Shown: positions 3,675-58,277 of the stretch, piece after piece
Layout of the letters: the number at the start of each line of letters is the position of its first letter
Position numbering within the stretch: the first letter of the stretch is position 1
Origin: Escherichia phage vB_EcoM_NBG1
Sequence record: MH243438.1
Direction: 5' to 3' (one strand)
DNA: 64,000 nucleotides
Notes under the pieces: generated by a model
What the model was told of the DNA's origin: nothing
Databases searched by the model: none
What the model saw: the letters and a program-made list of their open reading frames with translations, nothing else
Made by a program: the position numbers and the translations under genes

Positions 3675-5489
3675 GGACATCCATTCTTTACGAAGTTCTG
3701 AATCATCACCCATCAACATTTCAAAGAGTTCTTTCCAATTTTCAGGAAGTTTAACTACGTCGTACACAGGGTTCTGAATCATTTCACGATATTCTGACTT
3801 TTCAAGGGAGCCCAATCCCTTGATGTATCGAATACTATGCTTAGGCAGTGTATCTTTAACTTCTTCATACTCAGCTACAGTATAAAACCATTTTTGAGTT
3901 TTGCCAATTTGTGCAATAATTACAGGCGTTTTAACAAAGCGAATACGTCCTTGTTCGAACAATTCAGGCCAATTACTAAAGAAAGCAAGCAAAGCCGGAT
4001 AGATACTTCCAAGACCGTCGTGATCTGCATCAGTCATAATTGCAATATTACGATAGTTCGTATTCTCTGCCTTTTCACCAAGAATAAGACCTGTGATAGC
4101 ACAGATATCAAAGAGCTCTTTGTTCTTCATCATATCAGCATATGACATACCCCAGCTATTCATCACCTTACCACGTAATGGGAATCCGCCGTGTAGTTCA
4201 CGGTCACGAACATCAATGAGATAACCAATTGCCGAATCACCTTCCGTTAAGAACAATGTCGTATCTGCATCTTTACCACATTGGTTAGCTTTAATATGCT
4301 TATGAACCTTAGCTTTAGTTGCCTTTTTAGCTGCTTTAGTTTCTGCAGCCTTTTCTGCCGCCAATTTACGAGCTAATGCTGCTTCAACAATAGGCATAAT
4401 CAAGGCTTCGTTTTTAAGAAGTGCCTGAGCAATTTTCTTAGCATCTAATTGGATATGATTACGAATATCACCATACGTTGACGTTAAACGTTCTTTAGTC
4501 TGAGAATCAAAACGCATGTTGCTCATGTCTCTAATAAACATCAACATTGTGAGGCATTCTTTAACACGAGCTTTAGTGACTTCAATACCCTTATATTTCT
4601 TTTTAATACCCGGTAAAAGATGTTCGCAGATATCATCCATTACACATTCAACATGATGACCACCATTTTTAGTATGGATGTTATTCACATAAGTTAAATG
4701 ACGGAAGCCATCTGGTGATGTTGTGAATGCTATAGAGACTTTATCATTTTCTTGAATGATGTTATCTTCACCAAATTGTTTAGCAAATCGTTTAAAATTA
4801 CCATCAACCTTTTTACCATTAAATGTGAACTTGATATCAGGATAAACGACTGCCAATGTTTGAAGTCGGTCTAAAGTAATATCTAAATAAATTTGAGATA
4901 AATTATGCTCTTCAAATGAAGAGAAATCAGGAGTGAAGATTACTTTAGTGCCTTTACCTTTAGATTTCTTAGAAGACCATGATTTGTTTTCCATTCCGTT
5001 TGAACAGTTAACAGTGATTTCATTTTCGCCATCTGACGTGATGCCTGTAAACAACGTAGAGAAGATATTAGTTAAACTACTCCCGACGCCGTTCATACCA
5101 CCAGTCTTGCGTTCAGAATCATCACCAAAGTTACCACCAGCCTTTGGAATAGTCCAGGCCGCTACAGGACCAGGAATTTGTTCACCTGTTTGGTCGGTAA
5201 CTAAACCTTGAGGAATACCACGTCCGTTATCTTCCACCGAAACTTGATTATTTTTAATTTGCACATCAATTTTATTTGCAAACTTAAATGATGTACGAAT
5301 AGCTTCATCAACCGAGTTGTCAATAATCTCATCGATTAATTTAACCAGACCAGGAACATATTCAACTTGTTGATATTTACCAAACAAAAAACGCTCATGT
5401 GCTTCTTTAGCAGAAGAACCAATATACATACCACTACGTTTCTTAATATGTTCTACATCTGACAATACCTTAATTTCATTTTTAATCAT
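3672..5489 (-). CDS. 39: DNA topoisomerase II large subunit (gene 39 fused with gene 60 region)
   Basis: 605-aa ORF; GHKL ATPase motifs EIIDNSVDEA, EDNGRGIP, GGMNGVGSS plus TOPRIM-like C-terminal part; single uninterrupted ORF. Confidence 0.9.
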   Translation of the reverse strand: MIKNEIKVLSDVEHIKKRSGMYIGSSAKEAHERFLFGKYQQVEYVPGLVKLIDEIIDNSVDEAIRTSFKFANKIDVQIKNNQVSVEDNGRGIPQGLVTDQTGEQIPGPVAAWTIPKAGGNFGDDSERKTGGMNGVGSSLTNIFSTLFTGITSDGENEITVNCSNGMENKSWSSKKSKGKGTKVIFTPDFSSFEEHNLSQIYLDITLDRLQTLAVVYPDIKFTFNGKKVDGNFKRFAKQFGEDNIIQENDKVSIAFTTSPDGFRHLTYVNNIHTKNGGHHVECVMDDICEHLLPGIKKKYKGIEVTKARVKECLTMLMFIRDMSNMRFDSQTKERLTSTYGDIRNHIQLDAKKIAQALLKNEALIMPIVEAALARKLAAEKAAETKAAKKATKAKVHKHIKANQCGKDADTTLFLTEGDSAIGYLIDVRDRELHGGFPLRGKVMNSWGMSYADMMKNKELFDICAITGLILGEKAENTNYRNIAIMTDADHDGLGSIYPALLAFFSNWPELFEQGRIRFVKTPVIIAQIGKTQKWFYTVAEYEEVKDTLPKHSIRYIKGLGSLEKSEYREMIQNPVYDVVKLPENWKELFEMLMGDDSELRKEWMS

Positions 5490-7462: not shown

Positions 7463-7882
7463 TTATGCAAAAGATGCTGGACAATATTTTTTGATTTGGA
7501 ACTCAGGAACTACCATGAACTGTCCAGCGAAAACGATGTTATAAAGCTTAACACCATCTTCTACCCATTGGTCCGAAATAAAACCAGCAACTTGATTCGT
7601 TGTCCATGGAGACCCGTCAGTTGCAGCAGCAATAGTAAATTCATGGTCTTTTACAACTAAAACAGACCTGCACAGTTTCCATTTGAACGCACGTTCTTCT
7701 GGCTCAATGAACTGGCTTTTAACGTAACCAATGTTACCATCGGCGTCACGAACTTTAACTTGGTTACGACCAAAAACCGGATCACTCACAGAAAGAACTT
7801 CAACCAACTTCCCAGCAACTTTAGAGCGAGAAGCATCCGATACGTGTACATAATCACCAATAGAGAGATTTGCAATATTCAT
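7463..7882 (-). CDS. MotB-like protein, paralog 1 (KOW-like N-terminus)
   Basis: 139 aa; N-terminal IGDYVHVSDASRSKVAGKLVEV and C-terminal GFISDQWVEDGVKLYNIVF shared with the next ORF; T4 motB map position. Confidence 0.55.
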   Translation of the reverse strand: MNIANLSIGDYVHVSDASRSKVAGKLVEVLSVSDPVFGRNQVKVRDADGNIGYVKSQFIEPEERAFKWKLCRSVLVVKDHEFTIAAATDGSPWTTNQVAGFISDQWVEDGVKLYNIVFAGQFMVVPEFQIKKYCPASFA

Positions 7883-7891
7883 AATAATTCC

Positions 7892-8389
7892 TTAAGCTTT
7901 ACGAGGAGACACATAGCGAGTGATTTCAGATTCTTCAACAACTCGGAAGTCACCTAAGAATACAATATTGTATAGCTTTTTACCATCTTCTACCCATTGG
8001 TCACTAATGAAGCCGCACATAGTATCAGTTTTGCTTGGATAACCGTATTCGTCGATGTAATCAAATTCTTTATCGGTTATAAATTCAACGCCTTTGCAAA
8101 GGGCCCATTTGAACTGTGTAGTAGGCTCAACGATATCGCTTGAAGCAAAGTGTGCAGGTGCAACTTCTTCGCTTGAAGCAAATTGAACTCGTATATGTTT
8201 TTCCAGGAATTTAGGACTCACGTAAGCATACTGGGCATCTTGTCCGCCAAAACTGGGCATGATTCGAACTTTAACTTCTTTAACACGTCCCATGCCGTTA
8301 GTACGAAGCCCTGCTACTTCAACCAGACGACCTGCAGCTTTAGAACGAGAAGCAGGAGATACACGAAGGATTTCACCAATAGTAATCAT
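7892..8389 (-). CDS. MotB-like protein, paralog 2
   Basis: 165 aa; shares SRSKAAGRLVEV and GFISDQWVEDGKKLYNIVF with paralog 1. Confidence 0.55.
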   Translation of the reverse strand: MITIGEILRVSPASRSKAAGRLVEVAGLRTNGMGRVKEVKVRIMPSFGGQDAQYAYVSPKFLEKHIRVQFASSEEVAPAHFASSDIVEPTTQFKWALCKGVEFITDKEFDYIDEYGYPSKTDTMCGFISDQWVEDGKKLYNIVFLGDFRVVEESEITRYVSPRKA

Positions 8390-8417
8390 AATTTCTCTCT
8401 TTGTTTAAATTGAATTC

Positions 8418-8446
8418 ACTATACTCCATCCATCCTTGGATGTACA
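8418..8446 (-). promoter_or_regulatory. early sigma70-like promoter, PeSL-type variant (TTGTACA-N17-TATAGT)
   Basis: minus strand TTGTACATCCAAGGATGGATGGAGTATAGT, about 25 nt upstream of the ATG at 8389. Confidence 0.55.
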
Positions 8447-8449
8447 ACA

Positions 8450-8944
8450 TTAATTAAGGATATTAACCACAGCACTACGCGGAACTACACTAAAATCACC
8501 TGCATGAACTACGTTCAGAAGTTCAACACCGTCTTCAATCCACTGATCAGTTACCCATCCACAAACTGGACCTGCGAACGGACGTCGAATTGAAACAGCT
8601 TTACACAACAAATCAGTAGGCTCAATAGGCTTAATCAGAGTACCGTACATACAAGCGATATCCATATCAATACAGATGTCTTTAACGGGTTCTACTTCTT
8701 CAATCAACAGTTCAAAGTCTGTGCTTGGAAGGGCGGTAGTAGAAATTGTACCATATGAATTTTTAATTTCTAAGAATAACCAAGGGCCTTCAGCTTGTTT
8801 GATGAAGTTAACAATAGTGAAACTGTTACCTTGAGTGGCACCTAAAATTTCACAAAACTTTTCATAAGCTCGCACTGAAGCACCGTACCAGTTGATTTGT
8901 TTTTCGTCTTTCAGGATGTAAGTAGCCGTAGTATTGATATTCAT
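8450..8944 (-). CDS. MotB C-terminal-domain-like protein, paralog 3
   Basis: 164 aa; C-terminus GWVTDQWIEDGVELLNVVHAGDF matches paralogs 1 and 2; N-terminus unrelated; own PeSL-type promoter. Confidence 0.55.
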   Translation of the reverse strand: MNINTTATYILKDEKQINWYGASVRAYEKFCEILGATQGNSFTIVNFIKQAEGPWLFLEIKNSYGTISTTALPSTDFELLIEEVEPVKDICIDMDIACMYGTLIKPIEPTDLLCKAVSIRRPFAGPVCGWVTDQWIEDGVELLNVVHAGDFSVVPRSAVVNILN

Positions 8945-8975
8945 AATGTTTTTCCTGTTTGGTTAAGATAGAAAG

Positions 8976-9005
8976 ATTATACTCCAACCATCCTTGGTTG
9001 TAAAC
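8976..9005 (-). promoter_or_regulatory. early promoter cassette (GTTTAC-N17/18-TATAAT with internal inverted repeat)
   Basis: minus strand AGTTTACAACCAAGGATGGTTGGAGTATAAT; identical 30-nt copies at 50967-50996 and 51987-52015. Confidence 0.6.
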
Positions 9006-9010
9006 TGATT

Positions 9011-9688
9011 TTATCGCTGTTTTACACTTAACGGGTCAGGATTCTCAGGGACATCTTCAAGGTCAAGCGCATAACGCTGAGCATATTTTAACATCAAAAT
9101 ATCTTTAGCGCAATCATGAATACTATCATGGGCAACAAATCCTTTTAGCGTACCCATCGGTAATGGACACGTACTTAATCCTCGTGTCAACGAGTAAGCT
9201 TCGATTGCCGTACGAATATCGCGTTGAGCCCAGAATTTAACCGGTTCTAATTTATCAGTATCAATATCTGGTTCAAGAACACCTTCATCACGATAGAGGT
9301 CACGAATCAAATCGACCAATATCGGGAAGTCAAAGCTCATACCACGGCACCACATCTGTGATTTCCATTGGTCAACTTTATTAGCTCGGCAATAGTCTAA
9401 AAAGATTTTAATGCCTTCAAGCGTAGTGACATCGTCTTCAGACGGAGCCAAGTTTTTACGTGCTTCAGCCGATTGTTCTTTCCACCATTTCATAGTGGAT
9501 TTAGCGAAAACTCGCTTCCCTTTCTGAGAAGCTAAATTAAATTTAATTCGCTTACCTCGTTGAACAAGTTCTTCAAATGATTCAACAACTTCAGGGTCGG
9601 AATTATATGCAATAACCGCAAGGTCAATAACAGCCGCTTTTGATGTATTGCCGAATGTTTCAAAATCTATAATAACATCAGTGCTCAT
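9011..9688 (-). CDS. dexA: exonuclease A (DnaQ-like 3'-5' exonuclease)
   Basis: 225 aa; Exo I motif IIDFETFG; T4 dexA length and position. Confidence 0.85.
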   Translation of the reverse strand: MSTDVIIDFETFGNTSKAAVIDLAVIAYNSDPEVVESFEELVQRGKRIKFNLASQKGKRVFAKSTMKWWKEQSAEARKNLAPSEDDVTTLEGIKIFLDYCRANKVDQWKSQMWCRGMSFDFPILVDLIRDLYRDEGVLEPDIDTDKLEPVKFWAQRDIRTAIEAYSLTRGLSTCPLPMGTLKGFVAHDSIHDCAKDILMLKYAQRYALDLEDVPENPDPLSVKQR

Positions 9689-29644: not shown

Positions 29645-30276
29645 TGTTCGCCTCGTAACATGGCACCTAGTGCACCGCCTGGATGGAACTTAAGGAAATC
29701 ATTAGAGGTAAATCCACGTTCAGACGAAAGGTTGATAGCGAACGTATCGATAAGCGCTAACAACAATGTAGTAGACATTGTCGGAGCTAAAGAGTTCTCG
29801 TCAACTTCTACCGCGATACCGGTACAGAACGTATAATCAAAAAGAGCTTCGTATTCTTGTGGAATGTCAGGGTTACAATGTAACAGAATCTGTTTAACCT
29901 GAGGACGAATCATACGAAGATGTTTAGCAACACCTATCATTTCTTCAGTCTTACCAGAACGACTGATGTGAACTAATACATCATTAGGTGCAATAAATCC
30001 TGCGTCACCATGAGAATAATGCCCAGTGTTCAAGTACATACTTGGGATACCGAGTGAAGCAAAAGTCTCGGAAGCTTTAGTTGCGATATTAGCGTTCTTA
30101 CCAACACCTGTAATAATTACTCGGCTTTCATAATTACTAAGTCCCGGGCGTCGAAGAGTTTCTAGAATAGCATTATAACGAGCAGGGTTTTGACTAATTA
30201 CTTTAGCCATAGTGGCAAGAGATGAAGCTTGTTTTACGATTGCGTCAATAGCGATAGTGATTGGTGTAGTTTTCAT
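29641..30276 (-). CDS. D-arabinose-5-phosphate isomerase (SIS domain only, KdsD/GutQ-like)
   Basis: 211 aa; ITGVGKNANIATKASETFASLGIPS, ISRSGKTEE and FHPGGALG align with remembered E. coli KdsD SIS domain; no CBS domains. Confidence 0.85.
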   Translation of the reverse strand: MKTTPITIAIDAIVKQASSLATMAKVISQNPARYNAILETLRRPGLSNYESRVIITGVGKNANIATKASETFASLGIPSMYLNTGHYSHGDAGFIAPNDVLVHISRSGKTEEMIGVAKHLRMIRPQVKQILLHCNPDIPQEYEALFDYTFCTGIAVEVDENSLAPTMSTTLLLALIDTFAINLSSERGFTSNDFLKFHPGGALGAMLRGEQ

Positions 30277-30316
30277 ATTTCTCTCATTTAATTAGTTGGC
30301 CGTCCTTGGCATTATA

Positions 30317-33028: not shown

Positions 33029-33085
33029 TTAATTTCCTTTAGACGAGTTATTGTCTTTTGTTTGTTGATGAACTTATTATACTCC

Positions 33086-33107
33086 AAATGGGACCGAAGT
33101 CCCATTG
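33086..33107 (-). other. intercistronic UUCG stem-loop between regA and gene 43
   Basis: 9-bp stem with CGAA/UUCG loop, no U tract; adjacent to a TTATACTCCAA promoter-cassette remnant. Confidence 0.4.
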
Positions 33108-33109
33108 CT

Positions 33110-33487
33110 TTAATTACCAATTGTATATTTTGCTTTCAGAGTCCAGTCATCTTTCTGTTTAAAAGAGATAACACGGAAGTTATTAGTCAGGCCAAACAGA
33201 TCTTCACGAGCGGAGTCTTCAATAACAATCAAGCCCCAGTCTTCAAGCAACTGAGCAATCGAATCACGTCGTTGGTAGTCTTCACCATTGATATCAACTT
33301 GACGTCCGTCCATACGCAGCATTTCTTTAAAGTGGACGATGTAGTATTTACCTTGCTTTTGGAGGATATGACAGGACTGATAAAGGATTTTATCCTTGTT
33401 ATTAGCGATACCCATACGGGTCAGAGTCTCTTTGACTTTCAGAAAATCTTCAGGGTTCTTCAATTTAATTTCGATCATTTTTACCAT
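33110..33487 (-). CDS. regA: RegA translational repressor
   Basis: 125 aa; near-identical to remembered T4 RegA ([28 protein letters not shown]). Confidence 0.9.
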
Positions 33488-36484: not shown

Positions 36485-38173
36485 TTATGAAACAGTCATT
36501 ACAGTAAATCGTCCAACTTTGCTCATCTGAAGATGTTGTCCATAACGTTGAGGGTCATGGTCTCTATGAGAGATAATGAACACATTAGTATTTTGTAAAC
36601 TACCAAGGATGGTATCTATAGCCTTAACAGCTTCAGAATCCACAGCGCCGTCAAAAACTTCATCTAAAATCAGAGTGTTGATTTTAACACCAGAAACCTT
36701 TTCAGCAATATCTCGCCATGTAAACAACAGTGCGATATCGATACGTGCTTTTTCACCTTGACTAAATGAAGCATAACTGAACTCTTCACGGCCACGTGAT
36801 TTTATAGACTCATTGAATTCTTCGTCAATAGAAAACACGTAATCGGCTTCCATGATTTTAAGATAATGGTTAATCTGCTTATTGAACAAAGGCACGTATT
36901 TTTTAATGATAGCACCTTTAATACCAGAATCTTTTAACATATCTGTGATAATACCACGATGGTATTTTTCAAGAACGATGTCTGATTTTGTTTTAATGAT
37001 TTTATCAAGTTCTTTTTGAAGCAAAGCTATCTCATCAGCATGGTCGATAAATTCTGCTGAGGCTTGCTCTATTGCAGCTTTAACTTTCTTAGCTTTATCA
37101 ATAGTGGCAATCATTGCTTGTTTCTTGGTACGAATATCAGATGCAAGGTCCTGTTTAGTCTTAACATTAGCTCTATATTCGTCCACTAGGACACTCAGAT
37201 TATCTCTGTGACAGGTAAGTTGCTCGAATGAGTGATTACATTCATGAAGCTTATCGGTAATCTTAGAGACAATAGGATCACCCTGGTGCAACTGTGATGC
37301 ACAAGTAGGACATGTACCGCCATCATGATACATCTTAATAACTTTGTTATATGAGTCAATTTTAGATTTAATCAAGAATGCTTCTTGTCCTATCTTGTCG
37401 AATGCCTCAGTAGGGTCTTCATCAAGAACGATATTAAGTAGTCGCTCATTAGCTTCTTCGATTTCTGCTTTTAATGAACGAGCTTCTTTGGCTAGGTCGT
37501 CATACATATTCTGTAGACGCGCTACATTATCACCGGATAATTTCTTTTGACGTTCGATATTCTCATTATAAATCTTAATTTGTTGGATAACACCATCTTT
37601 CTTGGCGTCGAGAACTTGCCCCTGGGAATTAAGTTCTCGAACTTGAGACTTATTGATTTTATCCATTTCAGCGAGCGTGCCAACTTCTAAAAGGTCTTCG
37701 ACAAGTTTTCTACGAGCAGGGGTGCTAAGAGCCATGAAAGGGGTATACCCTGCCGTCCCAAGCACAACGATTTGTTTAAAAGACGCGTATGACATTCCGA
37801 TGCTACGTTCAAATTCTTCTTGGAAGTCACGACTGCTGGCAGATTCATCGAGACGAACACCGTCAACGGAGATTTCGAAAATATTGGGCTTTTGGCCACG
37901 TTTAATGAAGTATTTTTTATCATCGAATTCCATCCAAAGCTCAACTAAGAGCTCTTTCTTGTTCGTGCTATTAATGATTTGTCCTTTCTTAACATCACGA
38001 AATGGTTTACCGAAAAGTCCGAAAGTAATGGCTTCTAACATCGTAGATTTACCACCGCCATTTTTACCAGTGATTAATGTCTTTTGGACTTTATCTAATT
38101 GGATATCAATAGGATTCCCACCTACCGACATGATGTTTTGATAACGAACACGATTTAATTTAAATGATTTCAT
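36485..38173 (-). CDS. 46: recombination endonuclease subunit (Rad50/SbcC-like ATPase)
   Basis: 562 aa; Walker A GKNGGGKST, long coiled-coil middle; T4 gp46 size. Confidence 0.9.
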   Translation of the reverse strand: MKSFKLNRVRYQNIMSVGGNPIDIQLDKVQKTLITGKNGGGKSTMLEAITFGLFGKPFRDVKKGQIINSTNKKELLVELWMEFDDKKYFIKRGQKPNIFEISVDGVRLDESASSRDFQEEFERSIGMSYASFKQIVVLGTAGYTPFMALSTPARRKLVEDLLEVGTLAEMDKINKSQVRELNSQGQVLDAKKDGVIQQIKIYNENIERQKKLSGDNVARLQNMYDDLAKEARSLKAEIEEANERLLNIVLDEDPTEAFDKIGQEAFLIKSKIDSYNKVIKMYHDGGTCPTCASQLHQGDPIVSKITDKLHECNHSFEQLTCHRDNLSVLVDEYRANVKTKQDLASDIRTKKQAMIATIDKAKKVKAAIEQASAEFIDHADEIALLQKELDKIIKTKSDIVLEKYHRGIITDMLKDSGIKGAIIKKYVPLFNKQINHYLKIMEADYVFSIDEEFNESIKSRGREEFSYASFSQGEKARIDIALLFTWRDIAEKVSGVKINTLILDEVFDGAVDSEAVKAIDTILGSLQNTNVFIISHRDHDPQRYGQHLQMSKVGRFTVMTVS

Positions 38174-45120: not shown

Positions 45121-46934
45121 TGGTGTTTAACCCTATGCATGATTTCTTTATTTTTACCGAGATTAAATCCGCGTTCGTTCGGATTTCCCAAATAGCCGCA
45201 TGTTCTTCTTATTGTGTTCATCTTTTTAGGATCAGTTTCTCCACAGATAGAACAAACAAATCCGTTTTCAGTAGGAGTCATTTCATGAGTACTTCCGCAT
45301 GTAAAACATTTATCTACTGGCATATTAACACCAAAATAATCTAAATGTTGTGCAGCATAATCCCACACGGCCTCAAGACCTTTTAAGTTATTTTTCATAT
45401 CAGGAAGTTCAACATAAGAAATGTGACCACCTGTCGCAATGAAATGATATGGCGCTTCACGAGAAATCTTTTCAAACGGAGTAATATTTTCTTCTACTGA
45501 AACGTGGAAACTGTTAGTGTACCAGCCTTTATCGGTAACATATTTTACACTTCCATATTTTTCTGTATCAAGTTTACAGAAGCGGTAACAAAGGTTTTCA
45601 GCAGGAGTCGAATATAAACTAAAAGCAAATCCAGTTCTTTCAGTCCATTGCTTAAGATGAGCATTCATTTTAGTTAAAATTTCTTGTCCAATATCACGAC
45701 CAACAAGAATATTCAATTCGTGAATACCAATGTATCCTAAAGACACTGAACTTCTACCGTTTTTAAATAACTCAATTATGTCGTCATCAGGTTTAAGACG
45801 AACCCCGAATGCACCTTCTTGGTAAAGAATAGGAGCAACAGTCGCTTTAACTCCTTTTAAGGAACTAATTCTACACATCAAAGCTTCAAAACACAGGTCC
45901 ATTCGTTCGTTAAATAGCTCAACAAATTTCTGTTCATTGAACTGTGTTCCAATATAAGAATCTAACGCAATACGAGGAAGATTCAGTGTTACAACACCAA
46001 GATTATTACGTCCATCAAGAATTTCATTACCAGTCGAATCTTTCCATACGCTCAAGAAACTACGGCAACCCATCGGAGAAACAGGAACTGAAGAACCGGT
46101 AATAGCTTTATTATTCTTAACCGAAATAATGTCAGGATACATTCTTTTGCTTGCACATTCTAACGCAAGTTGTTTAATATCATAGTTTGGATCATCTTTA
46201 TAAAGATTAACACCTTCTTCAACAAACATAACAAGCTTAGGGAAAATAGGAGTTATCCCATCACGACCAAGACCTTTAATACGATTTTTCAGAATTGCTT
46301 TCTGAATCATTCGTTCAGTCCAGTCAGTTCCCGTACCAAATGTAATTGTTACAAAAGGCGTTTGCCCGTTTGAACTAAAAAGAGTATTTACTTCATATTC
46401 ATAAGCTTGGAATGCATCGTATACATCTTTTTCTGTTTTAGATTGAGCATAATTCAACGCATCAGCGATTTGCCATTTTTCTGCATCCTCAATATGTTTT
46501 GCATAGGTGCGTTTAACATAAGGAGAAAGTACTTTATCTACATTAGCAAAAGTCGTTCCGCCGTATTGATGGGAAGCAACTTGTGCAGTAATTTGTGCCA
46601 TAACTGCAGTAGCAACACCAATCGATTTAGGCGTTTCAATTTGAGCATTGCCTAATTTAAATCCGTTCTCAAGCATCCCCTTTAAATCGACTAAACAGCA
46701 ATTAGTAAATGGAAGAGCAGGGGAATAATCAATATCGTGGAAATGGATAATTCCGCTTTCGTGTGCTTTCATAATAAAAGACGGGACCATATTTTTGGCA
46801 ATGTGTTTAGACACAATACCAGCCATAAGGTCCCGTTGAGTTGGAAAAACACGAGAATCTTTATTAGCATTCTCGTTTAAAAGGTCTTTATTAGTTTTAT
46901 GAATCAGTCCTTCAATTTCTTTTTCAATTTTCAT
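45117..46934 (-). CDS. nrdD: anaerobic ribonucleoside-triphosphate reductase
   Basis: 605 aa; glycyl radical site RRTCGYLG; C-terminal zinc site CFTCGS..CSICG; uninterrupted ORF (no intron). Confidence 0.92.
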   Translation of the reverse strand: MKIEKEIEGLIHKTNKDLLNENANKDSRVFPTQRDLMAGIVSKHIAKNMVPSFIMKAHESGIIHFHDIDYSPALPFTNCCLVDLKGMLENGFKLGNAQIETPKSIGVATAVMAQITAQVASHQYGGTTFANVDKVLSPYVKRTYAKHIEDAEKWQIADALNYAQSKTEKDVYDAFQAYEYEVNTLFSSNGQTPFVTITFGTGTDWTERMIQKAILKNRIKGLGRDGITPIFPKLVMFVEEGVNLYKDDPNYDIKQLALECASKRMYPDIISVKNNKAITGSSVPVSPMGCRSFLSVWKDSTGNEILDGRNNLGVVTLNLPRIALDSYIGTQFNEQKFVELFNERMDLCFEALMCRISSLKGVKATVAPILYQEGAFGVRLKPDDDIIELFKNGRSSVSLGYIGIHELNILVGRDIGQEILTKMNAHLKQWTERTGFAFSLYSTPAENLCYRFCKLDTEKYGSVKYVTDKGWYTNSFHVSVEENITPFEKISREAPYHFIATGGHISYVELPDMKNNLKGLEAVWDYAAQHLDYFGVNMPVDKCFTCGSTHEMTPTENGFVCSICGETDPKKMNTIRRTCGYLGNPNERGFNLGKNKEIMHRVKHQ

Positions 46935-47404
46935 TTTAAACTCTTTCTAAGCTGCTTTTTGAATGAAGCTATTAATTGTGTTTTAGTATCAGATTCATTA
47001 TATTCAAATCCTCTTTGAAGCATCTCAGCCATCATTTCCTCTTTACCTAGTCTTGAGAACTCTTTAGTTTTGTCTGGAACAAAATTAGGATGGATATTAT
47101 TATCAGAATAATCTTGTTTCAAATAAGCAAGAAGAGCTTCAAGCCATTTGAGGTAGTCGACATCACGACCTTTAAGACCAGAACGGTTGAACTTATGCTT
47201 CATTTGGCCTTCTGCTGCGTTGCACAGATTACAGAGTAACCCACGAACTCTACCTGCTTTTGGCCCGTTTAATTCGTGGTCGTGGTCAAGATGGTTACCT
47301 TGAACATCAGGGTCTAATTCACGGTGGCAAATAGGACACTTACCGTTCTGTGCATCATAAAATTTTTGTTTTTCTTCTTTGTATAATTTGCCAGATAATA
47401 ACAT
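46931..47404 (-). CDS. 49: endonuclease VII (Holliday junction resolvase)
   Basis: 157 aa; CPIC..HLDHDH..CNLCN zinc/His-Me finger motifs; TATAAATA late promoter and SD-sequestering hairpin upstream. Confidence 0.9.
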   Translation of the reverse strand: MLLSGKLYKEEKQKFYDAQNGKCPICHRELDPDVQGNHLDHDHELNGPKAGRVRGLLCNLCNAAEGQMKHKFNRSGLKGRDVDYLKWLEALLAYLKQDYSDNNIHPNFVPDKTKEFSRLGKEEMMAEMLQRGFEYNESDTKTQLIASFKKQLRKSLK

Positions 47405-47409
47405 AATAA

Positions 47410-47440
47410 ACCCTTACCATATTAGATAAGGGTATTTATA
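47410..47440 (-). promoter_or_regulatory. late promoter TATAAATA plus SD-sequestering hairpin upstream of gene 49
   Basis: TATAAATA at 47433-47440; inverted repeat ACCCTTA/TAAGGGT (47410-47433) with the gene 49 SD AAGGG in the 3' arm. Confidence 0.6.
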
Positions 47441-47442
47441 AT

Positions 47443-47622
47443 TTAATAAATGTTATAAAAGTCACGATGGAAACGTTTGTATTGACGAATCATTCTTTTA
47501 GTAGGACGTGTTACCGAAATGATTGAAGTCCTCATGTTCGGATTGTTTGGAGCACCAATTATAACAAATTTCCAAGATTTTTGGCCGTTTGTTCTTTCGC
47601 CAAAAAATAATGCAGTTTTCAT
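47443..47622 (-). CDS. small basic protein, paralog 1
   Basis: 59 aa (MKTALFFGERTNGQKSWKFVIIGAP..VTRPTKRMIRQYKRFHRDFYNIY) by manual translation; shares RPTKR..FY..Y with ORF 48047-48217. Confidence 0.4.
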   Translation of the reverse strand: MKTALFFGERTNGQKSWKFVIIGAPNNPNMRTSIISVTRPTKRMIRQYKRFHRDFYNIY

Positions 47623-48345: not shown

Positions 48346-48702
48346 TTAACCGCGGAGCTTATTGAGCTCTTCATAATCAATCCAGGATTCTAACCCAGAT
48401 GGCAGGTCACATTCGATGTTCCACAGAAGCTCTTCAATGGCTTGTAGACGATTGAGTTCTTCAACGGTAATAGTAACCATTGGTTCAACCGGTTTTGCCT
48501 TTTTAACCATCATGTCATTCATCAGGACGTACAAGTCGTCACGAACAACGGTATCATTCCAACCCCATGATTTGGCTGCATACGCTAATGATGATGGGAG
48601 CACATTTAAAACTTCAATAATAGATGGAGATTCAGGACCAAGCTCAGATACACAAACTTCGTATACATCTTGGAAATCTTTAAGATTTAATGAATATGTC
48701 AT
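48346..48702 (-). CDS. hypothetical protein
   Basis: 118-aa acidic ORF; its start region is a 22-nt duplicate of the nrdC 3' end. Confidence 0.55.
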   Translation of the reverse strand: MTYSLNLKDFQDVYEVCVSELGPESPSIIEVLNVLPSSLAYAAKSWGWNDTVVRDDLYVLMNDMMVKKAKPVEPMVTITVEELNRLQAIEELLWNIECDLPSGLESWIDYEELNKLRG

Positions 48703-48721
48703 TTAAAATATTCTCGCAGTT
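48700..48721 (-). repeat. 22-nt direct repeat copy A (CATTTAAAATATTCTCGCAGTT)
   Basis: identical to 49015-49036; contains ATG of gene 48346-48702. Confidence 0.8.
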
Positions 48722-49017
48722 TATTGTTCTACACATGCACAGGAAACTTCGAAATCAGGACCGTCGTACTTCCAGTGATATTCACCAACAGGAATCCAGT
48801 CACCATGCTCGTTTTCTTCATAGTCCTCAGGCTCAAGGCCAACGAATCGCCATTGGACACCGATGATTCTATTACCCATCATTACTCGAAATTCGCCCCA
48901 TGGATTATCAATAGCATACTGAATATCGTTCTTAGCACGAGAGCACATTTCTTGATATAACAAAGTTTCTAATTCGTCCTGGTCATAAGGGCCTGGGAAA
49001 GTTAAATCGATATTCAT
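48721..49017 (-). CDS. hypothetical protein
   Basis: 98-aa acidic ORF with C-terminal CAC; ATGA overlap with nrdC stop. Confidence 0.55.
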   Translation of the reverse strand: MNIDLTFPGPYDQDELETLLYQEMCSRAKNDIQYAIDNPWGEFRVMMGNRIIGVQWRFVGLEPEDYEENEHGDWIPVGEYHWKYDGPDFEVSCACVEQ

Positions 49018-49277
49018 TTAAAATATTCTCGCAGTTGGTCAAATCCACCAATGTGACTTCCGTCAGGAGCAAACACTTGAGGCATCGTCAATCCAACATG
49101 TGTTTCACGTCCAAGCTTAGCCAGAAGCTCAGCAATTTTCTCATCGTCGAACACACCTTTTTCTGGCATAACATTAATGAATTCGAATGGTTGTTTCTTA
49201 ACAGTCAGCAATCGTTTCGCATTATCACAATAAATGCATTTATGAATAGTAGAGTCATACCCGTACACTTTAAACAT
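49014..49277 (-). CDS. nrdC: thioredoxin/glutaredoxin NrdC
   Basis: 87 aa from MFKVYGYDSTIHKCIYCDNAKRLL, near-identical to remembered T4 NrdC; CIYC redox motif. Confidence 0.88.
   Translation of the reverse strand: MFKVYGYDSTIHKCIYCDNAKRLLTVKKQPFEFINVMPEKGVFDDEKIAELLAKLGRETHVGLTMPQVFAPDGSHIGGFDQLREYFK
49015..49036 (-). repeat. 22-nt direct repeat copy B (3' end of nrdC plus ATG of downstream gene)
   Basis: identical to 48700-48721; encodes the nrdC C-terminus QLREYFK. Confidence 0.8.
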
Positions 49278-49683: not shown

Positions 49684-49988
49684 TATAATGTTCTCTCAAA
49701 TTTGTGGAAGCATTTACGGCATTTCAATTTCAAGTTATCACTGGTCCAGTTAACCAGTTGGACTTGGATAGTTCCACATTCCGGACATGGATGTTTTGCT
49801 GCCGATTTGGCAGCATTTTCACGTCGTTCAACCATTTTCATTATTTCGTTCCATGCTGGAGGAACGAACTCTTCTTCACCATGAATTTTATCTCGCTGAA
49901 CAAATTCAATCTTTGAACTATCATCAATAAACTTAACCAAGTCATGATTAGTGCTCATATCAATATCCTCTAAAAGACGTAGTTTCAT
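49683..49988 (-). CDS. zinc-ribbon protein
   Basis: 101 aa; CPECG..CRKCFHKF. Confidence 0.55.
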   Translation of the reverse strand: MKLRLLEDIDMSTNHDLVKFIDDSSKIEFVQRDKIHGEEEFVPPAWNEIMKMVERRENAAKSAAKHPCPECGTIQVQLVNWTSDNLKLKCRKCFHKFERTL

Positions 49989-50938
49989 TATAAAACCTCA
50001 ATGGCATTTCGTAAACCATCCGCTTTCGCATTCAGAGCTTTTAACGATTTAGTTTGTTCTTTAATCTGAGCTTCGACTTCTTTCAGACGAGATTTGAGAT
50101 ATTCACGTTCTTCGGCCATAATATCTACCTTTTCTGCTTTAGGTTCTTTAATAGGCTTAGGCTTATACGTATTAGGGTTCTTCAACTTAATTTGAATGCG
50201 AGAACTGAATAACATCGAACCGTTATCTTCGGTTTCATCATGCATTTCTACCACGTCCATGATTCTTAACATCATGCGAAGTTTATAAGACAGCGAACGA
50301 ACGGTTTTATTGTGCTTCTTAATTTCTTCAGCTTTCATGGTGCCGAGATTACGTGAGTAATAATAAGGAACCTGAATATCAATTGATAATGATGCAGTAC
50401 CATTACCGGTTGGTTTGAACACTGCAGTAACCCAATCTTTAGCATGAACTGTATTTGTACGATCATCGCCGCCTGTGAATAATTTACGAGAATGTTTAAA
50501 AAGCATATTCACTTGGTTATTGAATTCACAAGCAAATTTATCAGCAAATTTAGTTTCAGGAATGGTAGATAACCAATCAGCCAAATGAGTCTTTTTAACA
50601 TCATTAACAATAGTGAATTCAACCAAATCGGTTTTAGATGTCACAGATTTAATAAAGCTCGGCTTCATAAAGTTTTTAATGTTATCGCGAGCTACAGTAG
50701 AAGATAATAAACGAGAACGTTTGAACCATTGAAGCAGTGTCCCTAATGAATGAGAATATGCATTTTGAGTATCTTTACAGATATGATTTTCTTGGCCTAT
50801 GTATGTACCAAAATCTCGAAGAATACCACTTACTACATCTCGGTGTGGAACATCAAATCCTAGTGCACCAGAAGCACGTTGGGCATGAACGTTAGCGATA
50901 AGACCTGCAAAGTATTCAATGTAATGTGAACGTGTCAT
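49988..50938 (-). CDS. hypothetical protein with C-terminal coiled coil
   Basis: 316-aa ORF with its own PeSL-type promoter at 50967-50996. Confidence 0.65.
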   Translation of the reverse strand: MTRSHYIEYFAGLIANVHAQRASGALGFDVPHRDVVSGILRDFGTYIGQENHICKDTQNAYSHSLGTLLQWFKRSRLLSSTVARDNIKNFMKPSFIKSVTSKTDLVEFTIVNDVKKTHLADWLSTIPETKFADKFACEFNNQVNMLFKHSRKLFTGGDDRTNTVHAKDWVTAVFKPTGNGTASLSIDIQVPYYYSRNLGTMKAEEIKKHNKTVRSLSYKLRMMLRIMDVVEMHDETEDNGSMLFSSRIQIKLKNPNTYKPKPIKEPKAEKVDIMAEEREYLKSRLKEVEAQIKEQTKSLKALNAKADGLRNAIEVL

Positions 50939-50966
50939 AATATTTTCCTCTCGTTAAGATAAATTC

Positions 50967-50996
50967 ATTATACTCCAACCATCCTTGGTTGTAAAC
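50967..50996 (-). promoter_or_regulatory. early promoter cassette (identical PeSL-type copy)
   Basis: plus strand TTATACTCCAACCATCCTTGGTTGTAAAC; upstream of ATG 50938. Confidence 0.6.
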
Positions 50997-51000
50997 TATT

Positions 51001-51960
51001 TTATGATTTTAATGCATTCATTGCGTTAAAAAGTTTAGAATACTGCAACTGGAGATTCGTTACAACACTTTGAGCATCACGAAGCTTAGCTTGTGCTTTG
51101 TCAAGTTCAACAGACAGTTGGTCCATAGTGGCCTTGATTTGATTGTAATGGTAATCTTCGGCCGGAAGAAGGTCATTAGAAACATTTAGTTTTACTGCAG
51201 ACAGTTTGCACACATTTGGCAAACCTTTAAACATTGATTTAGCCGAAGTAGAATAAGCACTTAGGACTTCGGCTTGTTCAATTGGGGTCCCAGTAAGCGA
51301 TGCTTCAAACAATGCATTTTCCTTTTTAAGATTTTGATAGTATTCAGAGTCTTTGTGCCACCATGGCGCAGGAACCTTTTTACCAATAGATACACGAGCC
51401 TGGATAGCGATATTGCCCTTATTCTTGATAGGGTCGATAATATTAAGCTCACGAGAATAAATTGCTTTAATCTGGTGAATATTATCACCTAAAACTTCCA
51501 ACGCTTGGTGGAATACACGAGCAACGTTATCATTCTTAGGTTTATACGTGAGAGTGAACTCGTTCTCACTGATAACCATGATTTCCAACTTATCGTAAGT
51601 ATATTTCAAATGTTTCATGTTAATTGCTTGAGGACGAATACGAGAAGCAATGGCCATCAGATTGTTAAGGTTATTCCGGAACTGCTTAGCGAAATATTGT
51701 CCTTCACCGCCAATACAAAAATTACGAAGTTTCTGTTTGGCCAATAAACGGCTGAACTCGCCATTTTTAATGAACTCTTTAACGGGTGTGTTAGTAACGC
51801 ATTCAAATTGAGTAAACTTACGAGAATTAATCCCATAATACGAACAGATTTCCTCAATCTCTTCAGGAGTCTTTACAGGCATACGGATAGGATTAGGTCC
51901 TGGAGTATATGCGTTCGAGGTAAATTCTTTGATAAGTTCTCTACGTGTAATAAAAGCCAT
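51001..51960 (-). CDS. hypothetical protein with C-terminal coiled coil
   Basis: 319-aa ORF with its own PeSL-type promoter at 51987-52015. Confidence 0.65.
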   Translation of the reverse strand: MAFITRRELIKEFTSNAYTPGPNPIRMPVKTPEEIEEICSYYGINSRKFTQFECVTNTPVKEFIKNGEFSRLLAKQKLRNFCIGGEGQYFAKQFRNNLNNLMAIASRIRPQAINMKHLKYTYDKLEIMVISENEFTLTYKPKNDNVARVFHQALEVLGDNIHQIKAIYSRELNIIDPIKNKGNIAIQARVSIGKKVPAPWWHKDSEYYQNLKKENALFEASLTGTPIEQAEVLSAYSTSAKSMFKGLPNVCKLSAVKLNVSNDLLPAEDYHYNQIKATMDQLSVELDKAQAKLRDAQSVVTNLQLQYSKLFNAMNALKS

Positions 51961-51986
51961 TTTATATTCCTCATGTTGAAAAATTT

Positions 51987-52015
51987 ATTATACTCCAACC
52001 ATCCTTGGTTGTACA
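51987..52015 (-). promoter_or_regulatory. early promoter cassette (identical PeSL-type copy)
   Basis: plus strand TTATACTCCAACCATCCTTGGTTGTACA; upstream of ATG 51960. Confidence 0.6.
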
Positions 52016-53011
52016 TCATTCCTTAAGAAGTTTTACTACTTGAATAAGATTAGCTCGTTCTGTTTTATTTTTACCATTTAAGCCTGCTAATCGTGAGATT
52101 TCATCGTCAGTCTGTTGAATAGTTACATTAAGTTCGTTAATCAAAGCTTCAAAGTATTTGATTTGCTCAGCATGTTTTGATTCAAATTTCTGAACAGGAA
52201 TAACGTCTTGGTTCAGTTCATCAATAAGGTCTTTAAGAGCATCTTCTTGGTTGATATCATATTCAACTTCTTTTATTTCTTCAACGAGCTCGTCTTTATA
52301 TCTAACGTCTTTTAGTCCTGGTGCTGGTCCTGAAATCTCTTCTTTAAGAGTACAAACATATCCAATACGGTATCCAATGCCGTCTCGCTTGATATCAACT
52401 TCGTCGATAAATCCACAATGTTTAAGCCCGGAGCCGATTATGTCAAAATATCCTTGACGTCGTCCTTCAAACGTTACACGAACTACTAAGACAGTTTTAC
52501 CTGCAACCTTTTGAAGCTCACATTTATAAAAGTCAGTTGAACCTGAATAACGTGGATTAGTTTTAAAGTTCATCTGACGATCTAGGCCCATTTGTAAGCG
52601 TGCTGTTACGGCCATAAAACGTGTTTGGTTCTCGTTAAGATGAGCAACAATCCATTTCAAAGGCATTTTACACTGTTCACGGCCGAACAAATCAGTACGT
52701 CCTAAATTACGCAGGATATTGTTAGAGTTAATCATCGACAGAACGTTAAGTTTATTCAGCGCGCTGAAGATTCCATCGGCCATTGATTTTCCGTAACCTT
52801 TACACGCTTTAATAAGTGCTCGCGGTAGATTAGTATAGATTTCAGACGGCATATGAAAATCAAATTTACTAACCAGTAATTGATGAACTTGGATAGCAAT
52901 TTGTTCATAATTAAGTGCTCTGCGATCATTATGGTCTTTAAACCACACTTTAATCTGTGAAGCACATAAACCGTTAATTTCATGTTTTACCGCATCAGAT
53001 GTAATGCTCAT
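52016..53011 (-). CDS. hypothetical protein with C-terminal coiled coil
   Basis: 331-aa ORF; degenerate PeSL-like element upstream (53041-53070). Confidence 0.65.
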   Translation of the reverse strand: MSITSDAVKHEINGLCASQIKVWFKDHNDRRALNYEQIAIQVHQLLVSKFDFHMPSEIYTNLPRALIKACKGYGKSMADGIFSALNKLNVLSMINSNNILRNLGRTDLFGREQCKMPLKWIVAHLNENQTRFMAVTARLQMGLDRQMNFKTNPRYSGSTDFYKCELQKVAGKTVLVVRVTFEGRRQGYFDIIGSGLKHCGFIDEVDIKRDGIGYRIGYVCTLKEEISGPAPGLKDVRYKDELVEEIKEVEYDINQEDALKDLIDELNQDVIPVQKFESKHAEQIKYFEALINELNVTIQQTDDEISRLAGLNGKNKTERANLIQVVKLLKE

Positions 53012-53073
53012 AACTATTTCCTCAGATTGAATTGGAACTCAAAACCATTATAACCCGTCCTTGGGTAAAGCGT

Positions 53074-53601
53074 TTATGCGTGAACCGTCTTTAAACGTTC
53101 TTCAAATTTCCGAAGAGTACTAATACGTTCTGCTTTCTGTTTTGTATAGTTTGCAATACGTTCTGAAGTGAGAGCGTATCGTTCGTTTACTGTTTCTTTC
53201 ATGAAGTCAGGGATTTCACGAGAAGCTTTAATTTCATCAAACTTATCGAGTACTGCCTGGTCTTCAGCAATTAAATTTTCGTACATCTCGATATCTTTCT
53301 TGATGAAGTCGATATCTTCCTGGGTTACTTTGGATAAACGAGATGCTTTATCCTTTTTGTACTGCTCGTTAGTTTCACGAGACCAGAATAATGTACGTTT
53401 TTTGTTAGTGTTTTTGTAGACTTCCACAATTCCAACTGAATCGATGATAACAATCCAATTCCAGCGAGATTTGAAAATCTGACCTCCGTCCACGGTAATC
53501 TCGTTACCATAAGCAATGTCATTAAAGAACTTACTTTGTGCTTCAGATTTAAATTTACCGTCGTTATAATTTACCAGGTTGAAAATATCTTTAGCGTTCA
53601 T
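53074..53601 (-). CDS. hypothetical protein
   Basis: 175-aa ORF with early promoter GTTTAC-N17-TATTAT upstream. Confidence 0.6.
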   Translation of the reverse strand: MNAKDIFNLVNYNDGKFKSEAQSKFFNDIAYGNEITVDGGQIFKSRWNWIVIIDSVGIVEVYKNTNKKRTLFWSRETNEQYKKDKASRLSKVTQEDIDFIKKDIEMYENLIAEDQAVLDKFDEIKASREIPDFMKETVNERYALTSERIANYTKQKAERISTLRKFEERLKTVHA

Positions 53602-53659
53602 GTTTTACCTCCAGTAGTTGATAGGTCTATAATAACATAACCATAGACCTTGTAAACAA

Positions 53660-53947
53660 CTAAAAGAAACTTTTTTCGGTATTTTTTCCACTGAACCAAA
53701 CAGACTTCGGGATTTTTTGTAATTTTTCAGATTTAAGTTTCTCTTCCTGTTCTTTCTTATATACACCCTTGTCGTACTGGAGCATCTCTATGGCATTCTT
53801 TTGCAAACGATCTAAGGTAATTAAGGCTTTAGTTTTTCCTTTCAAGGAAGAGTCCTGGCGAACCTCCTCACTATATTGCATCGTAGAACTAACCATACGA
53901 TGAGCATACAGTTCGACTGCGGCTTTAATTTTTTGCATAAAATCCAT
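53660..53947 (-). CDS. hypothetical protein
   Basis: 95-aa ORF. Confidence 0.55.
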   Translation of the reverse strand: MDFMQKIKAAVELYAHRMVSSTMQYSEEVRQDSSLKGKTKALITLDRLQKNAIEMLQYDKGVYKKEQEEKLKSEKLQKIPKSVWFSGKNTEKSFF

Positions 53948-54084
53948 AACATATCCTCTTTGATTTGTACATCATTATTTTAAATATTTCTATGCCCTCA
54001 GTAGGTTCCTGGTGTCCTTCTTTGAGGTAAGCCATATGATTATTCATCTTTATGGCTTTTGTTACCTCAGAACTTCCTATAAGC

Positions 54085-57827: not shown

Positions 57828-58034
57828 CTACCGATTGTGTTTTAAATGTTGATAAAGTTCTTCAACTTGTTTAGGGTCCAAAACAATTAGGTCATTTTCT
57901 TGACGAAGATAAATCCATCCCTTATCCCCAGGTCCATTTTTACAAAACATCACCACCATATCATCATCTTCAGCGCTTTCAGGTAAAAGTTCAAGTACAC
58001 CGTCTTCAGATTTTCCAGTATAATCGTAAAGCAT
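57828..58034 (-). CDS. hypothetical protein
   Basis: 68 aa from ATG 58034 (MLYDYTGKSEDG..), SD GAGGA. Confidence 0.5.
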   Translation of the reverse strand: MLYDYTGKSEDGVLELLPESAEDDDMVVMFCKNGPGDKGWIYLRQENDLIVLDPKQVEELYQHLKHNR

Positions 58035-58225: not shown

Positions 58226-58277
58226 TTCTCCTCTAGTAAGTAAGGACTACTATAACACAACCTGAGGAGAAGTAAAC
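58226..58277 (-). promoter_or_regulatory. early promoter (GTTTAC-N17-TATAGT) with spacer/SD inverted repeat
   Basis: spacer arm 58261-58271 complementary to SD arm 58226-58236 (8 of 11 contiguous). Confidence 0.5.

Follow-up and report, generated by a model that had tools for sequence, protein, structure and literature searches.

The subject of this report is a short promoter-bearing repeat in Escherichia phage vB_EcoM_NBG1 (sequence record MH243438.1), of which one stretch of 64,000 nucleotides (nt), referred to below as the window, was analyzed. The window is the early region of a Mosigvirus (RB69-like T4-type coliphage, Tevenvirinae), extends from rIIA to beyond regB, and carries nearly all of its genes on the minus strand; positions 50000–54000 are 98.9% identical to Escherichia phage vB_Eco_F31 (F31), and 606 phage records were matched. 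The repeats flagged in an initial annotation of the sequence fall in two 'hyperplastic' stretches of small accessory early genes. These stretches, the four copies of the repeat (hereafter the cassette) and the two genes enclosed by pairs of copies (cargo genes) are listed here.

7.4–9.7 kb: hyperplastic stretch dexA–motB.
48–56 kb: hyperplastic stretch nrdC.x.
8942–9012, minus strand: copy 1, between dexA and the motB.1-like gene 8450–8944; core at 8976–9005; ATG at 8944–8942; hairpin CAACCA.AGGA.TGGTTG at 8985–9000.
50936–51005, minus strand: copy 2, upstream of the nrdC.3/nrdC.4-like gene 49988–50938; core at 50967–50996; hairpin at 50976–50991.
51958–52020, minus strand: copy 3, upstream of the nrdC.5-like gene 51001–51960; core at 51987–52016, with TGTACA as -35; hairpin at 51996–52011.
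8387–8450, minus strand: copy 4, upstream of the motB-like gene 7892–8389; TGTACA-N17-TATAGT; hairpin CATCCA.AGGA.TGGATG at 8427–8442, with a compensatory A-U to U-A change.
51001–51960, minus strand: cargo gene between copies 3 and 2; 319 amino acids (aa), distant homologue of T4 NrdC.5.
8450–8944, minus strand: cargo gene between copies 1 and 4; 164 aa, motB.1-like paralogue.

Sequence and extent of the cassette

Pairwise alignments show that the copies have about 70 nt in common. The shared part begins with the A-rich stretch that follows the stop codon of the upstream gene, continues through -35, hairpin, -10, leader (5' untranslated region), and ribosome-binding site, and reaches the downstream ATG; similarity among the copies ends at the flanking coding sequences. 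The 30-nt core (GTTTACAACCAAGGATGGTTGGAGTATAAT on the minus strand) is identical at 8976–9005 and 50967–50996; it reads GTTTAC-N18-TATAAT, equivalent to sigma-70 TTTACA-N17-TATAAT, with arms CAACCA/TGGTTG around AGGA. The 29-mer quoted in the initial annotation is found exactly at 8977–9005 and 50968–50996 and with two mismatches at 51988–52016; it was matched in none of 100 shuffles and is not due to chance. Copy 3 starts with ATGTAC, giving TGTACA as -35, and has only 27 nt (TACAACC...TATAAT) in common with copies 1 and 2. The claim of identical copies at 9.0, 51.0, and 52.0 kb therefore holds for the coordinates and for copies 1 and 2 over 30 nt, and is wrong for the -35 end of copy 3. The core of copy 4 (8418–8447), with 26 of 30 bases identical, is a genuine family member.

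The only paralogues detected by BLASTP are the three genes at 7463–8944; no mutual similarity was detected by BLASTP among the proteins encoded 3' of copies 2 and 3 and the nrdC.6-like protein.

Predicted early promoters

Consensus matches predict that each copy is a T4-type early promoter, served by host RNA polymerase (sigma-70). In a consensus scan, copies 1 (9004–8976) and 2 (50995–50967) were the top sigma-70-like sites of their regions (TTTACA-N17-TATAAT, 11/12); copy 3 (TGTACA-N17-TATAAT) scored 10/12 and copy 4 scored 9/12. The promoter cores lie 30–40 nt upstream of the ATG of minus-strand genes. The T4/RB69 early-promoter consensus consists of GTTTAC, an A-rich upstream stretch, and TATAAT, and 57 early promoters have been predicted in RB69, many of them before novel open reading frames (ORFs) [according to Nolan et al. 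2006, PMC1524935]; GTTTAC at -36 to -31, an A-rich UP-like region, a GT-rich stretch 5' of -12, and TATAAT are given for T4 early promoters, with attribution to Liebig & Ruger 1989. The promoter reading of the initial annotation fits this published consensus, with TGTAC replacing GTTTAC in copies 3 and 4.

Two other readings of the promoter region were rejected. An intrinsic terminator is not indicated: the stem (-6.9 kcal/mol) is followed by no T/U-run and is not among the terminator-like calls in the scan. A 4-codon mini-ORF in the hairpin (ATG GTT GGA GTA TAA) loses its ATG or frame in the GGAC variants and in the T4 copies. As a separate observation, a second class of early promoter, GTTTAC-N17/18-TATAGTAGTCCT, is present on the minus strand at 58277, 57828, and 18894; its inverted repeat spans the -10 box (GGTAGGA...TCCTACC at 57828).

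Probable gene loss between cassette copies

The 319-aa gene 51001–51960 is missing from p000v. The p000v junction is an exact chimera of the copy-3 left flank (…GGAATGATGTAC), the shared 27 nt, and the copy-2 right flank (GAATCTATCTTAAC…ATGACACGT). Of 153 related records, 21 gave an unbroken match to a 261-nt query for the p000v-type junction; the remainder carry the gene. The product of gene 51001–51960 is 25% identical to T4 NrdC.5 over 308 residues (E = 5e-11), and the counterpart in RB69 is annotated as nrdC.5. Since an nrdC.5-type gene is present at this position in T4, RB69, and Dhakavirus, loss is the parsimonious direction, and we infer that the event at the nrdC locus was a loss rather than a gain.

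At the motB locus, the 164-aa gene 8450–8944 is missing from JK42, PNJ-9, S143_2, AV115, AV118, and G2285. The junction was matched in a single piece in S143_2, AV115, AV118, and G2285; pieces 560 bp apart were joined in this search, and single-piece matches alone were counted. In JK42 the junction consists of the 5' arm of copy 1 (CAACCA) and the 3' arm of copy 4 (TGGATG), by which a mismatched stem is left; the origin of the two arms places the crossover inside the 10-nt loop core CCAAGGATGG. In PNJ-9, TGGTTG is retained and the switch lies within GGAGTATAAT.

The deletion end-points are thus located exactly inside the cassette in three junction types, which probably arose by homologous or microhomology recombination. 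The initial annotation had taken the repeats for likely recombination substrates in gene shuffling, and the chimeric junctions in relatives argue for this; in the comparison that it had proposed, the presence or absence of the flanked genes in relatives, both cargo genes were found to vary. The outcome that it had named as speaking against its reading, with no repeats in relatives and an unvarying set of flanked genes, did not occur.

In T4 and in Dhakavirus C6, the position 3' of dexA has another early promoter, one that lacks a hairpin, and the dexA-proximal copy is Mosigvirus-specific. The different promoter at this site argues that copy 1 results from lineage-specific spread or conversion of the nrdC-type cassette, and indicates that a cassette may move between loci 42 kb apart.

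Further observations were made at the nrdC locus. In moha, an extra 67-aa ORF, also found in Dhakavirus, lies at the copy-3 site; the moha cassette before the nrdC.5-like gene has acquired a left flank of the copy-2 type, to which about 24 nt of upstream coding sequence belong; and a direct repeat of about 55 nt (4030–4160 vs. 3040–3170 in moha) lies next to the extra ORF. The whole nrdC.x run (49988–53011 in the window) is called 'thioredoxin' in public records, which looks like name propagation from nrdC; the encoded proteins are about 320 aa long, with coiled-coil-like C-termini, and show no mutual similarity by BLASTP.

The hairpin in the promoter spacer

The minus-strand motif had been read as GTTTAC-N17/18-TATAAT with an internal CAACCA/TGGTTG inverted repeat, and this reading was correct; the initial annotation was largely right, and partly confirmed, in what it observed. 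Four degenerate copies had also been listed, of which that at 8418 is genuine, those at 30.3 and 53.05 kb have only the hairpin core in common with the cassette, and that at 33.08 kb is unrelated. The two hairpin-only sites are as follows.

53047–53075, minus strand: related hairpin ACCC.AAGGAC.GGGT at 53053–53066, upstream of the nrdC.6-like gene 52016–53011.
30299–30310, minus strand: related hairpin GCC.AAGGAC.GGC, between gene 43 and the arabinose-5-phosphate-isomerase gene.

At 53047–53075 only the hairpin core CCAAGGACGG is shared, the context being a MotA-box-like (middle) promoter (GCTTTA-N13-TATAAT); the hairpin is the orthologue of the T4 nrdC.8/nrdC.7 intergenic hairpin TTATACCA.AGGA.TGGTATAA. 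The hairpin at 30299–30310 sits directly 3' of TATAAT. The site at 33076–33112 was not accepted into the family: it consists of the UUCG hairpin between regA and gene 43, which is conserved and also found in T4, followed by GGAGTATAAT, and has nothing but this 10-mer in common with the cassette.

The window has seven occurrences of the core CCAAGGAYGG; six lie between genes, on the strand that carries the genes. Five further promoter-context hairpins with the core CA(A/T)GGA(T/C/A)G are present in the F31 genome outside the window, and four such hairpins in the first 100 kb of T4, upstream of rIIA.1, nrdC.3, nrdC.4, and nrdC.7. About 11 hairpin-bearing promoters are counted per genome (window and remaining F31 sequence), every one in an early region. 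Upstream of the nrdC.3/4-like gene, orthologous sites have stems that vary between genera and a core that is unchanged; the stem arms are as follows.

Mosigvirus: CAACCA/TGGTTG.
Dhakavirus: CATCCA/TGGATG.
T4: CCACA/TGTGG.
Gaprivervirus-like: CTTCCA/TGGAGG, with one G-U pair.

The core CANGGANG (CA-N-GGA-N-G) is invariant in all 18 distinct promoter-context hairpins, which were aligned for covariation. Columns 7/18 are AU in 6, CG in 5, UA in 5, and GC in 2 hairpins, and columns 8/17 are CG in 13, AU in 3, and UA in 2, with no unpaired case in either; the set was picked partly on stem length, by which these two column pairs are somewhat favored. The unselected columns 6/19 are paired in 16 of 18. 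None of 500 shuffles came up to the alignment in covariation score or in the percentage of pairing, and slid registers were 25–44% paired. Sense-strand G-U wobbles occur three times.

In three sequence sets, at least three further stem pairs were found at 15 of 19 intergenic sense-strand CANGGANG sites vs. 13 of 77 sites in coding sequence, and at none of the intergenic antisense sites was a hairpin formed. An unbiased census of intergenic sense-strand tetraloop hairpins with at least five Watson-Crick pairs covered four sequence sets (window; F31, 60–169 kb; T4, 1–100 kb; C6, 1–50 kb), which together hold 25.7 kb of intergenic DNA. UUCG was found 30 times, AGGA 11 times, UGGA twice, and any other loop at most twice; AGGA is thus the second commonest loop, and all 13 (A/U)GGA loops are closed by CA...UG. 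The hairpin sequence is retained where the promoter register has changed, where the -35 is missing (T4 nrdC.4/nrdC.3), and where it lies 3' of TATAAT (window 30299; F31 142562), and this suggests selection for more than the spacing of promoter hexamers.

Nothing relevant was returned by Rfam for the whole window at gathering thresholds, nor for 50900–52100 at E up to 10. In an unbiased scan of IMG/VR with GTTTAC-N(3-9)-AAGGAY-N(3-9)-TATAAT, which served as a control, 105 of the 120 matches listed were chance matches with 0–1 stem pairs, and all 12 of the listed matches with at least three pairs were T4-like. A search of viral contigs with the nrdC.3/4-like protein gave four loci, too few for covariation among orthologues. 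As an isolated observation, a TACCA.AGGA.TGGTA hairpin with the CANGGANG core is found on the plus strand at 36601–36614, antisense inside the minus-strand gene 46 homologue and between TTGTAA and TATAGC with 18-nt spacing; it could be due to chance or belong to an antisense promoter.

Candidate functions of the hairpin

The strand specificity of the loop, the occurrence of G-U pairs, and a register that varies favor a role of the hairpin as RNA rather than as DNA. Tentatively, the hairpin may be put forward as a site for CsrA, a global RNA-binding regulator of the host, on read-through early RNAs, which would be repressed or stabilized, or which, being abundant, would titrate CsrA; such a role would add to the explanation of the cassette and would not replace it. 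The invariant C-A-N-G-G-A-N-G is the core of the E. coli CsrA consensus RUACARGGAUGU, obtained by SELEX, in which GGA lies within a hairpin loop [PMC6692469]. The T4 copies are an exact match to ACAAGGAUGU; the intergenic hairpins occur on the sense strand only; and they are retained at a changed register or after loss of the -35 (T4 nrdC.4/nrdC.3, window 30299, F31 142562). CsrA might possibly bridge the loop GGA and that of the ribosome-binding site about 36 nt downstream. What speaks for CsrA is resemblance to a short consensus; purine loops with GGA resemble ribosome-binding sites too, the sites number only about 11 per genome, and neither a paper that ties CsrA to T4-type mRNAs nor binding or CLIP results for these sites were found. 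It is rather unlikely, from sequence comparison, that the conserved sense-strand AGGA/UGGA-loop hairpins in early- and middle-promoter spacers of T-even-type phages (T4, RB69-like, Dhakavirus, Gaprivervirus) are high-affinity CsrA sites for recruitment of the protein in cistron-specific control or for its soaking-up; if they were, a phage-encoded interface with the Csr system, hitherto undescribed, would have been found.

A processing or stability signal made up of hairpin and GGAG is a doubtful alternative. The phage endoribonuclease RegB would cut read-through RNA at GG^AG 3' of the stem and uncouple the cistrons, and the hairpin would protect the new 3' end of the upstream mRNA. In its favor, GGAGUAUAAU follows the stem in copies 1–4 and in the orthologues from Dhakavirus and Gaprivervirus, intergenic GGAG of early transcripts is a target of RegB, and regB is encoded in genomes of the window's type. 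Hairpins after stop codons are said to be typical 3'-end protectors in T4, like the C(UUCG)G class of intercistronic hairpins reportedly found there. After the stem, in GGAGUAUAAU(G/C/A) of copies 1–4, 4–5 of the 7 positions 3' of GGAG match the RegB/S1 consensus GGAGRAYARAA, with the first G paired. Against such a signal, this G is held in the stem, structured sites are resistant to RegB, the stems are weak, and GGAG is missing in window 53053 and 30299, T4 nrdC.5/nrdC.4, and F31 73159. Cutting of the loop GGAU by RegB was rejected as unlikely, given that only 2 of 30 intergenic GGAU sites were cut (28 resistant) in a published T4 survey.

An effect of the inverted repeat as DNA, either as a spacer that sets promoter strength or as an operator or cruciform for a protein that might stimulate recombination, appears improbable. 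Several features are consistent with it: the 3' arms (TGGTTG, TGTGG, TGGTG, TGTGTG) overlie the GT-rich stretch that T4 early promoters have 5' of -12, the hairpin nearly always overlaps the promoter, the JK42 crossover lies within the 10-nt CCAAGGATGG loop core, and the stem-loop of similar cassettes (PeSLs, see below) was suggested by way of speculation to be a target of a recombination protein [Arbiol et al., PMC2839356]. All four Watson-Crick combinations are found together with G-U and without A-C, however, which favors pairing in sense RNA; the register relative to -35 and -10 varies, with the hairpin 3' of TATAAT in two cases; and an asymmetric loop is conserved that a symmetric operator would not need.

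That the repeats are remnants of tandem gene duplications without any part in shuffling, the gene-less relatives having arisen by unrelated deletions, is very improbable. In its favor, the genes at 7463–8944 are paralogues, and the nrdC.3, nrdC.4, and nrdC.5 proteins, similar in length and in their coiled-coil-like C-terminal ends, may have diverged as paralogues very long ago. Against it, no similarity was detectable in the coding DNA that surrounds copies 1, 2, and 3, whereas the cassette has 27–30 identical nt, and a tandem-duplication origin was rejected for these copies. Copies 1 and 2 lie 42 kb apart before genes that are not related, T4 and Dhakavirus have another promoter at the site of copy 1, and the end-points of deletion inside the cassette in three junction types contradict the duplication reading.

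Proposed role of the cassette

We consider it likely (probability about 0.8) that the repeat is a regulatory cassette of about 70 bp, placed before accessory early genes, which serves as a crossover site for gene loss and contains a separately selected hairpin. Host sigma-70 early promoter, short leader, and ribosome-binding site would drive minus-strand accessory early genes. The hairpin (stem of 4–8 bp, loop (A/U)GGA closed by CA...UG) is nested in the 17/18-nt spacer between -35 and -10 as a strand-specific element and is most probably read as RNA on read-through from the upstream gene. Very short homologies suffice for efficient recombination in T4-type phages, so that a gene between two cassettes in direct orientation would be deleted with the cassettes as end-points; the reverse reaction, or exchange with a relative in the same infected cell, would insert or replace a gene. 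Every outcome would leave the neighboring gene with an intact promoter.

Several points weigh against this interpretation. The total number of sigma-70-like matches in both regions is no greater than in shuffles. The hairpins are weak, at about -7 kcal/mol each (z-scores between -0.7 and -2.0). Selection alone could account for the exact identity of copies 1 and 2, and all 21 deletions at the nrdC locus could stem from one event. The junctions in JK42 and PNJ-9 differ by one base in the 3' arm, and a single deletion followed by a point mutation is another possible way to this difference. Finally, cassettes bound only two of the some 10 larger indels that set the window apart from RB69, JK42, and p000v; among the others, one is flanked by a 23-nt stop/start-junction repeat and one is a homing-endonuclease insertion. 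These indels make the cassette a recurrent breakpoint that is one of several kinds.

Other repeats and insertions were recorded as follows. The 23-nt direct repeat at 48699–48721 and 49014–49036 (minus strand AACTGCGAGAATATTTTAAATGA) consists of a ribosome-binding site and an ATGA stop/start overlap; it flanks the 98-aa gene 48721–49017, which is missing in RB69, and represents a second, promoter-less kind of indel-boundary repeat. JK42 carries a SegG homing-endonuclease gene (46631–47498) between nrdD and gene 49, which is not present in the window; at the 3' end of its gene 43 (JK42 29740–30208), a direct repeat of 81 nt with copies 388 bp apart may be an assembly artifact. Dhakavirus C6 has a repeated leader of its own, CTTTCTA(C/T)CAACT(T)GAGGAGAATA, in the modA region and before the nrdC.4-like gene (about 11890 and 45193, respectively); both copies come after a hairpin-bearing GTTTAC promoter.

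Comparison with known systems

T4 early promoters. Every motif that defines these promoters is present in the cassette; an inverted repeat in the spacer, a stem-loop, or an AGGA loop is not mentioned by Nolan et al. 2006 (PMC1524935).

C(UUCG)G hairpins of T4. Both classes are defined by the sequence of a tetraloop and enriched on the intergenic sense strand (30 UUCG vs. 11 AGGA in the census); the class in the cassette differs by its AGGA loop, by weaker stems, and by its position inside promoters rather than at terminators.

CsrA/RsmA hairpins. CsrA/RsmA sites have AnGGA in a hairpin loop. CA-N-GGA-N-G in the loop and closing pairs of a short hairpin is common to both, and the T4 copies match ACARGGAUGU exactly. 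The hairpins described here differ in being phage-encoded and embedded in a promoter, without overlap with the ribosome-binding site of the regulated gene; the likeness is one of sequence and structure. The CA-NGGA-NG hairpin class is the part of the cassette that may hold something new, as a candidate for an unrecognized post-transcriptional signal that is present in T4 too.

Promoter-early stem-loops (PeSLs). These composite cassettes of early promoter and stem-loop have been described in hyperplastic regions of RB49/phi1, T4/PST, and KVP40/nt-1, where their recombination deletes, inserts, or swaps ORFs, with mini-circles in RB49 [according to Arbiol 2010, PMC2839356, and Comeau 2014, PMC4122927]. 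An A-rich stretch, a sigma-70-type early promoter, a stem-loop, a ribosome-binding site, and an ATG are found in both. The sigma-70-like promoter with N17 spacing is present, and the T4/PST form TTTACW-N17-TAYWAT fits the window copies; Shine-Dalgarno sequence and start codon stand at the 3' end of the element; multiple copies occur in hyperplastic early regions, here four close copies in the motB and nrdC regions; and a single chimeric cassette marks indel junctions, here in p000v, JK42, and PNJ-9. The stem-loop differs in place and kind: in PeSLs it is located just upstream of the promoter, and termination of transcription by it has been demonstrated, whereas in the window it is placed within the -35/-10 spacer or overlaps -10, lacks a U-tract, and is not terminator-like by scan. 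The loop and closing pairs of the window hairpins are conserved in sequence (CA-NGGA-NG); the stems of PeSLs are G(n)...C(n), A3-4G3...C3T3-4, and AGNA...TCNT. With four of the defining features of PeSLs present and the upstream-terminator stem-loop not among them, the cassette may be called PeSL-like. The concept of shuffling has already been published for PeSLs; new are the architecture and its occurrence in a lineage from which none had been described.

Microhomology deletions in T4. Accessory early genes, including nrdC.5, are deleted from T4 in segments of 0.7–6 kb between direct repeats of 6–10 bp; loss of such genes alters host range, and T4 nrdC.5 counters the Dsr1 defense [according to Srikant et al. 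2022, PMC9391042]. In both systems accessory early genes including nrdC.5 are lost between short direct repeats. In T4 these are arbitrary microhomologies used in laboratory evolution; here natural isolates share a functional module of 27–30 nt at corresponding positions, and a promoter that is predicted to work is restored by the crossover. The experimental demonstration of microhomology deletions in T4 (PMC9391042) makes the mechanism proposed here plausible. The junctions described above are natural examples, at the sequence level, of how T4-type phages gain or lose accessory early genes without breaking the regulation of the neighbors. As the counterpart of nrdC.5 comes and goes and T4 nrdC.5 counters Dsr1, the cassettes probably help to set the counter-defense repertoire and host range of therapeutic coliphages.

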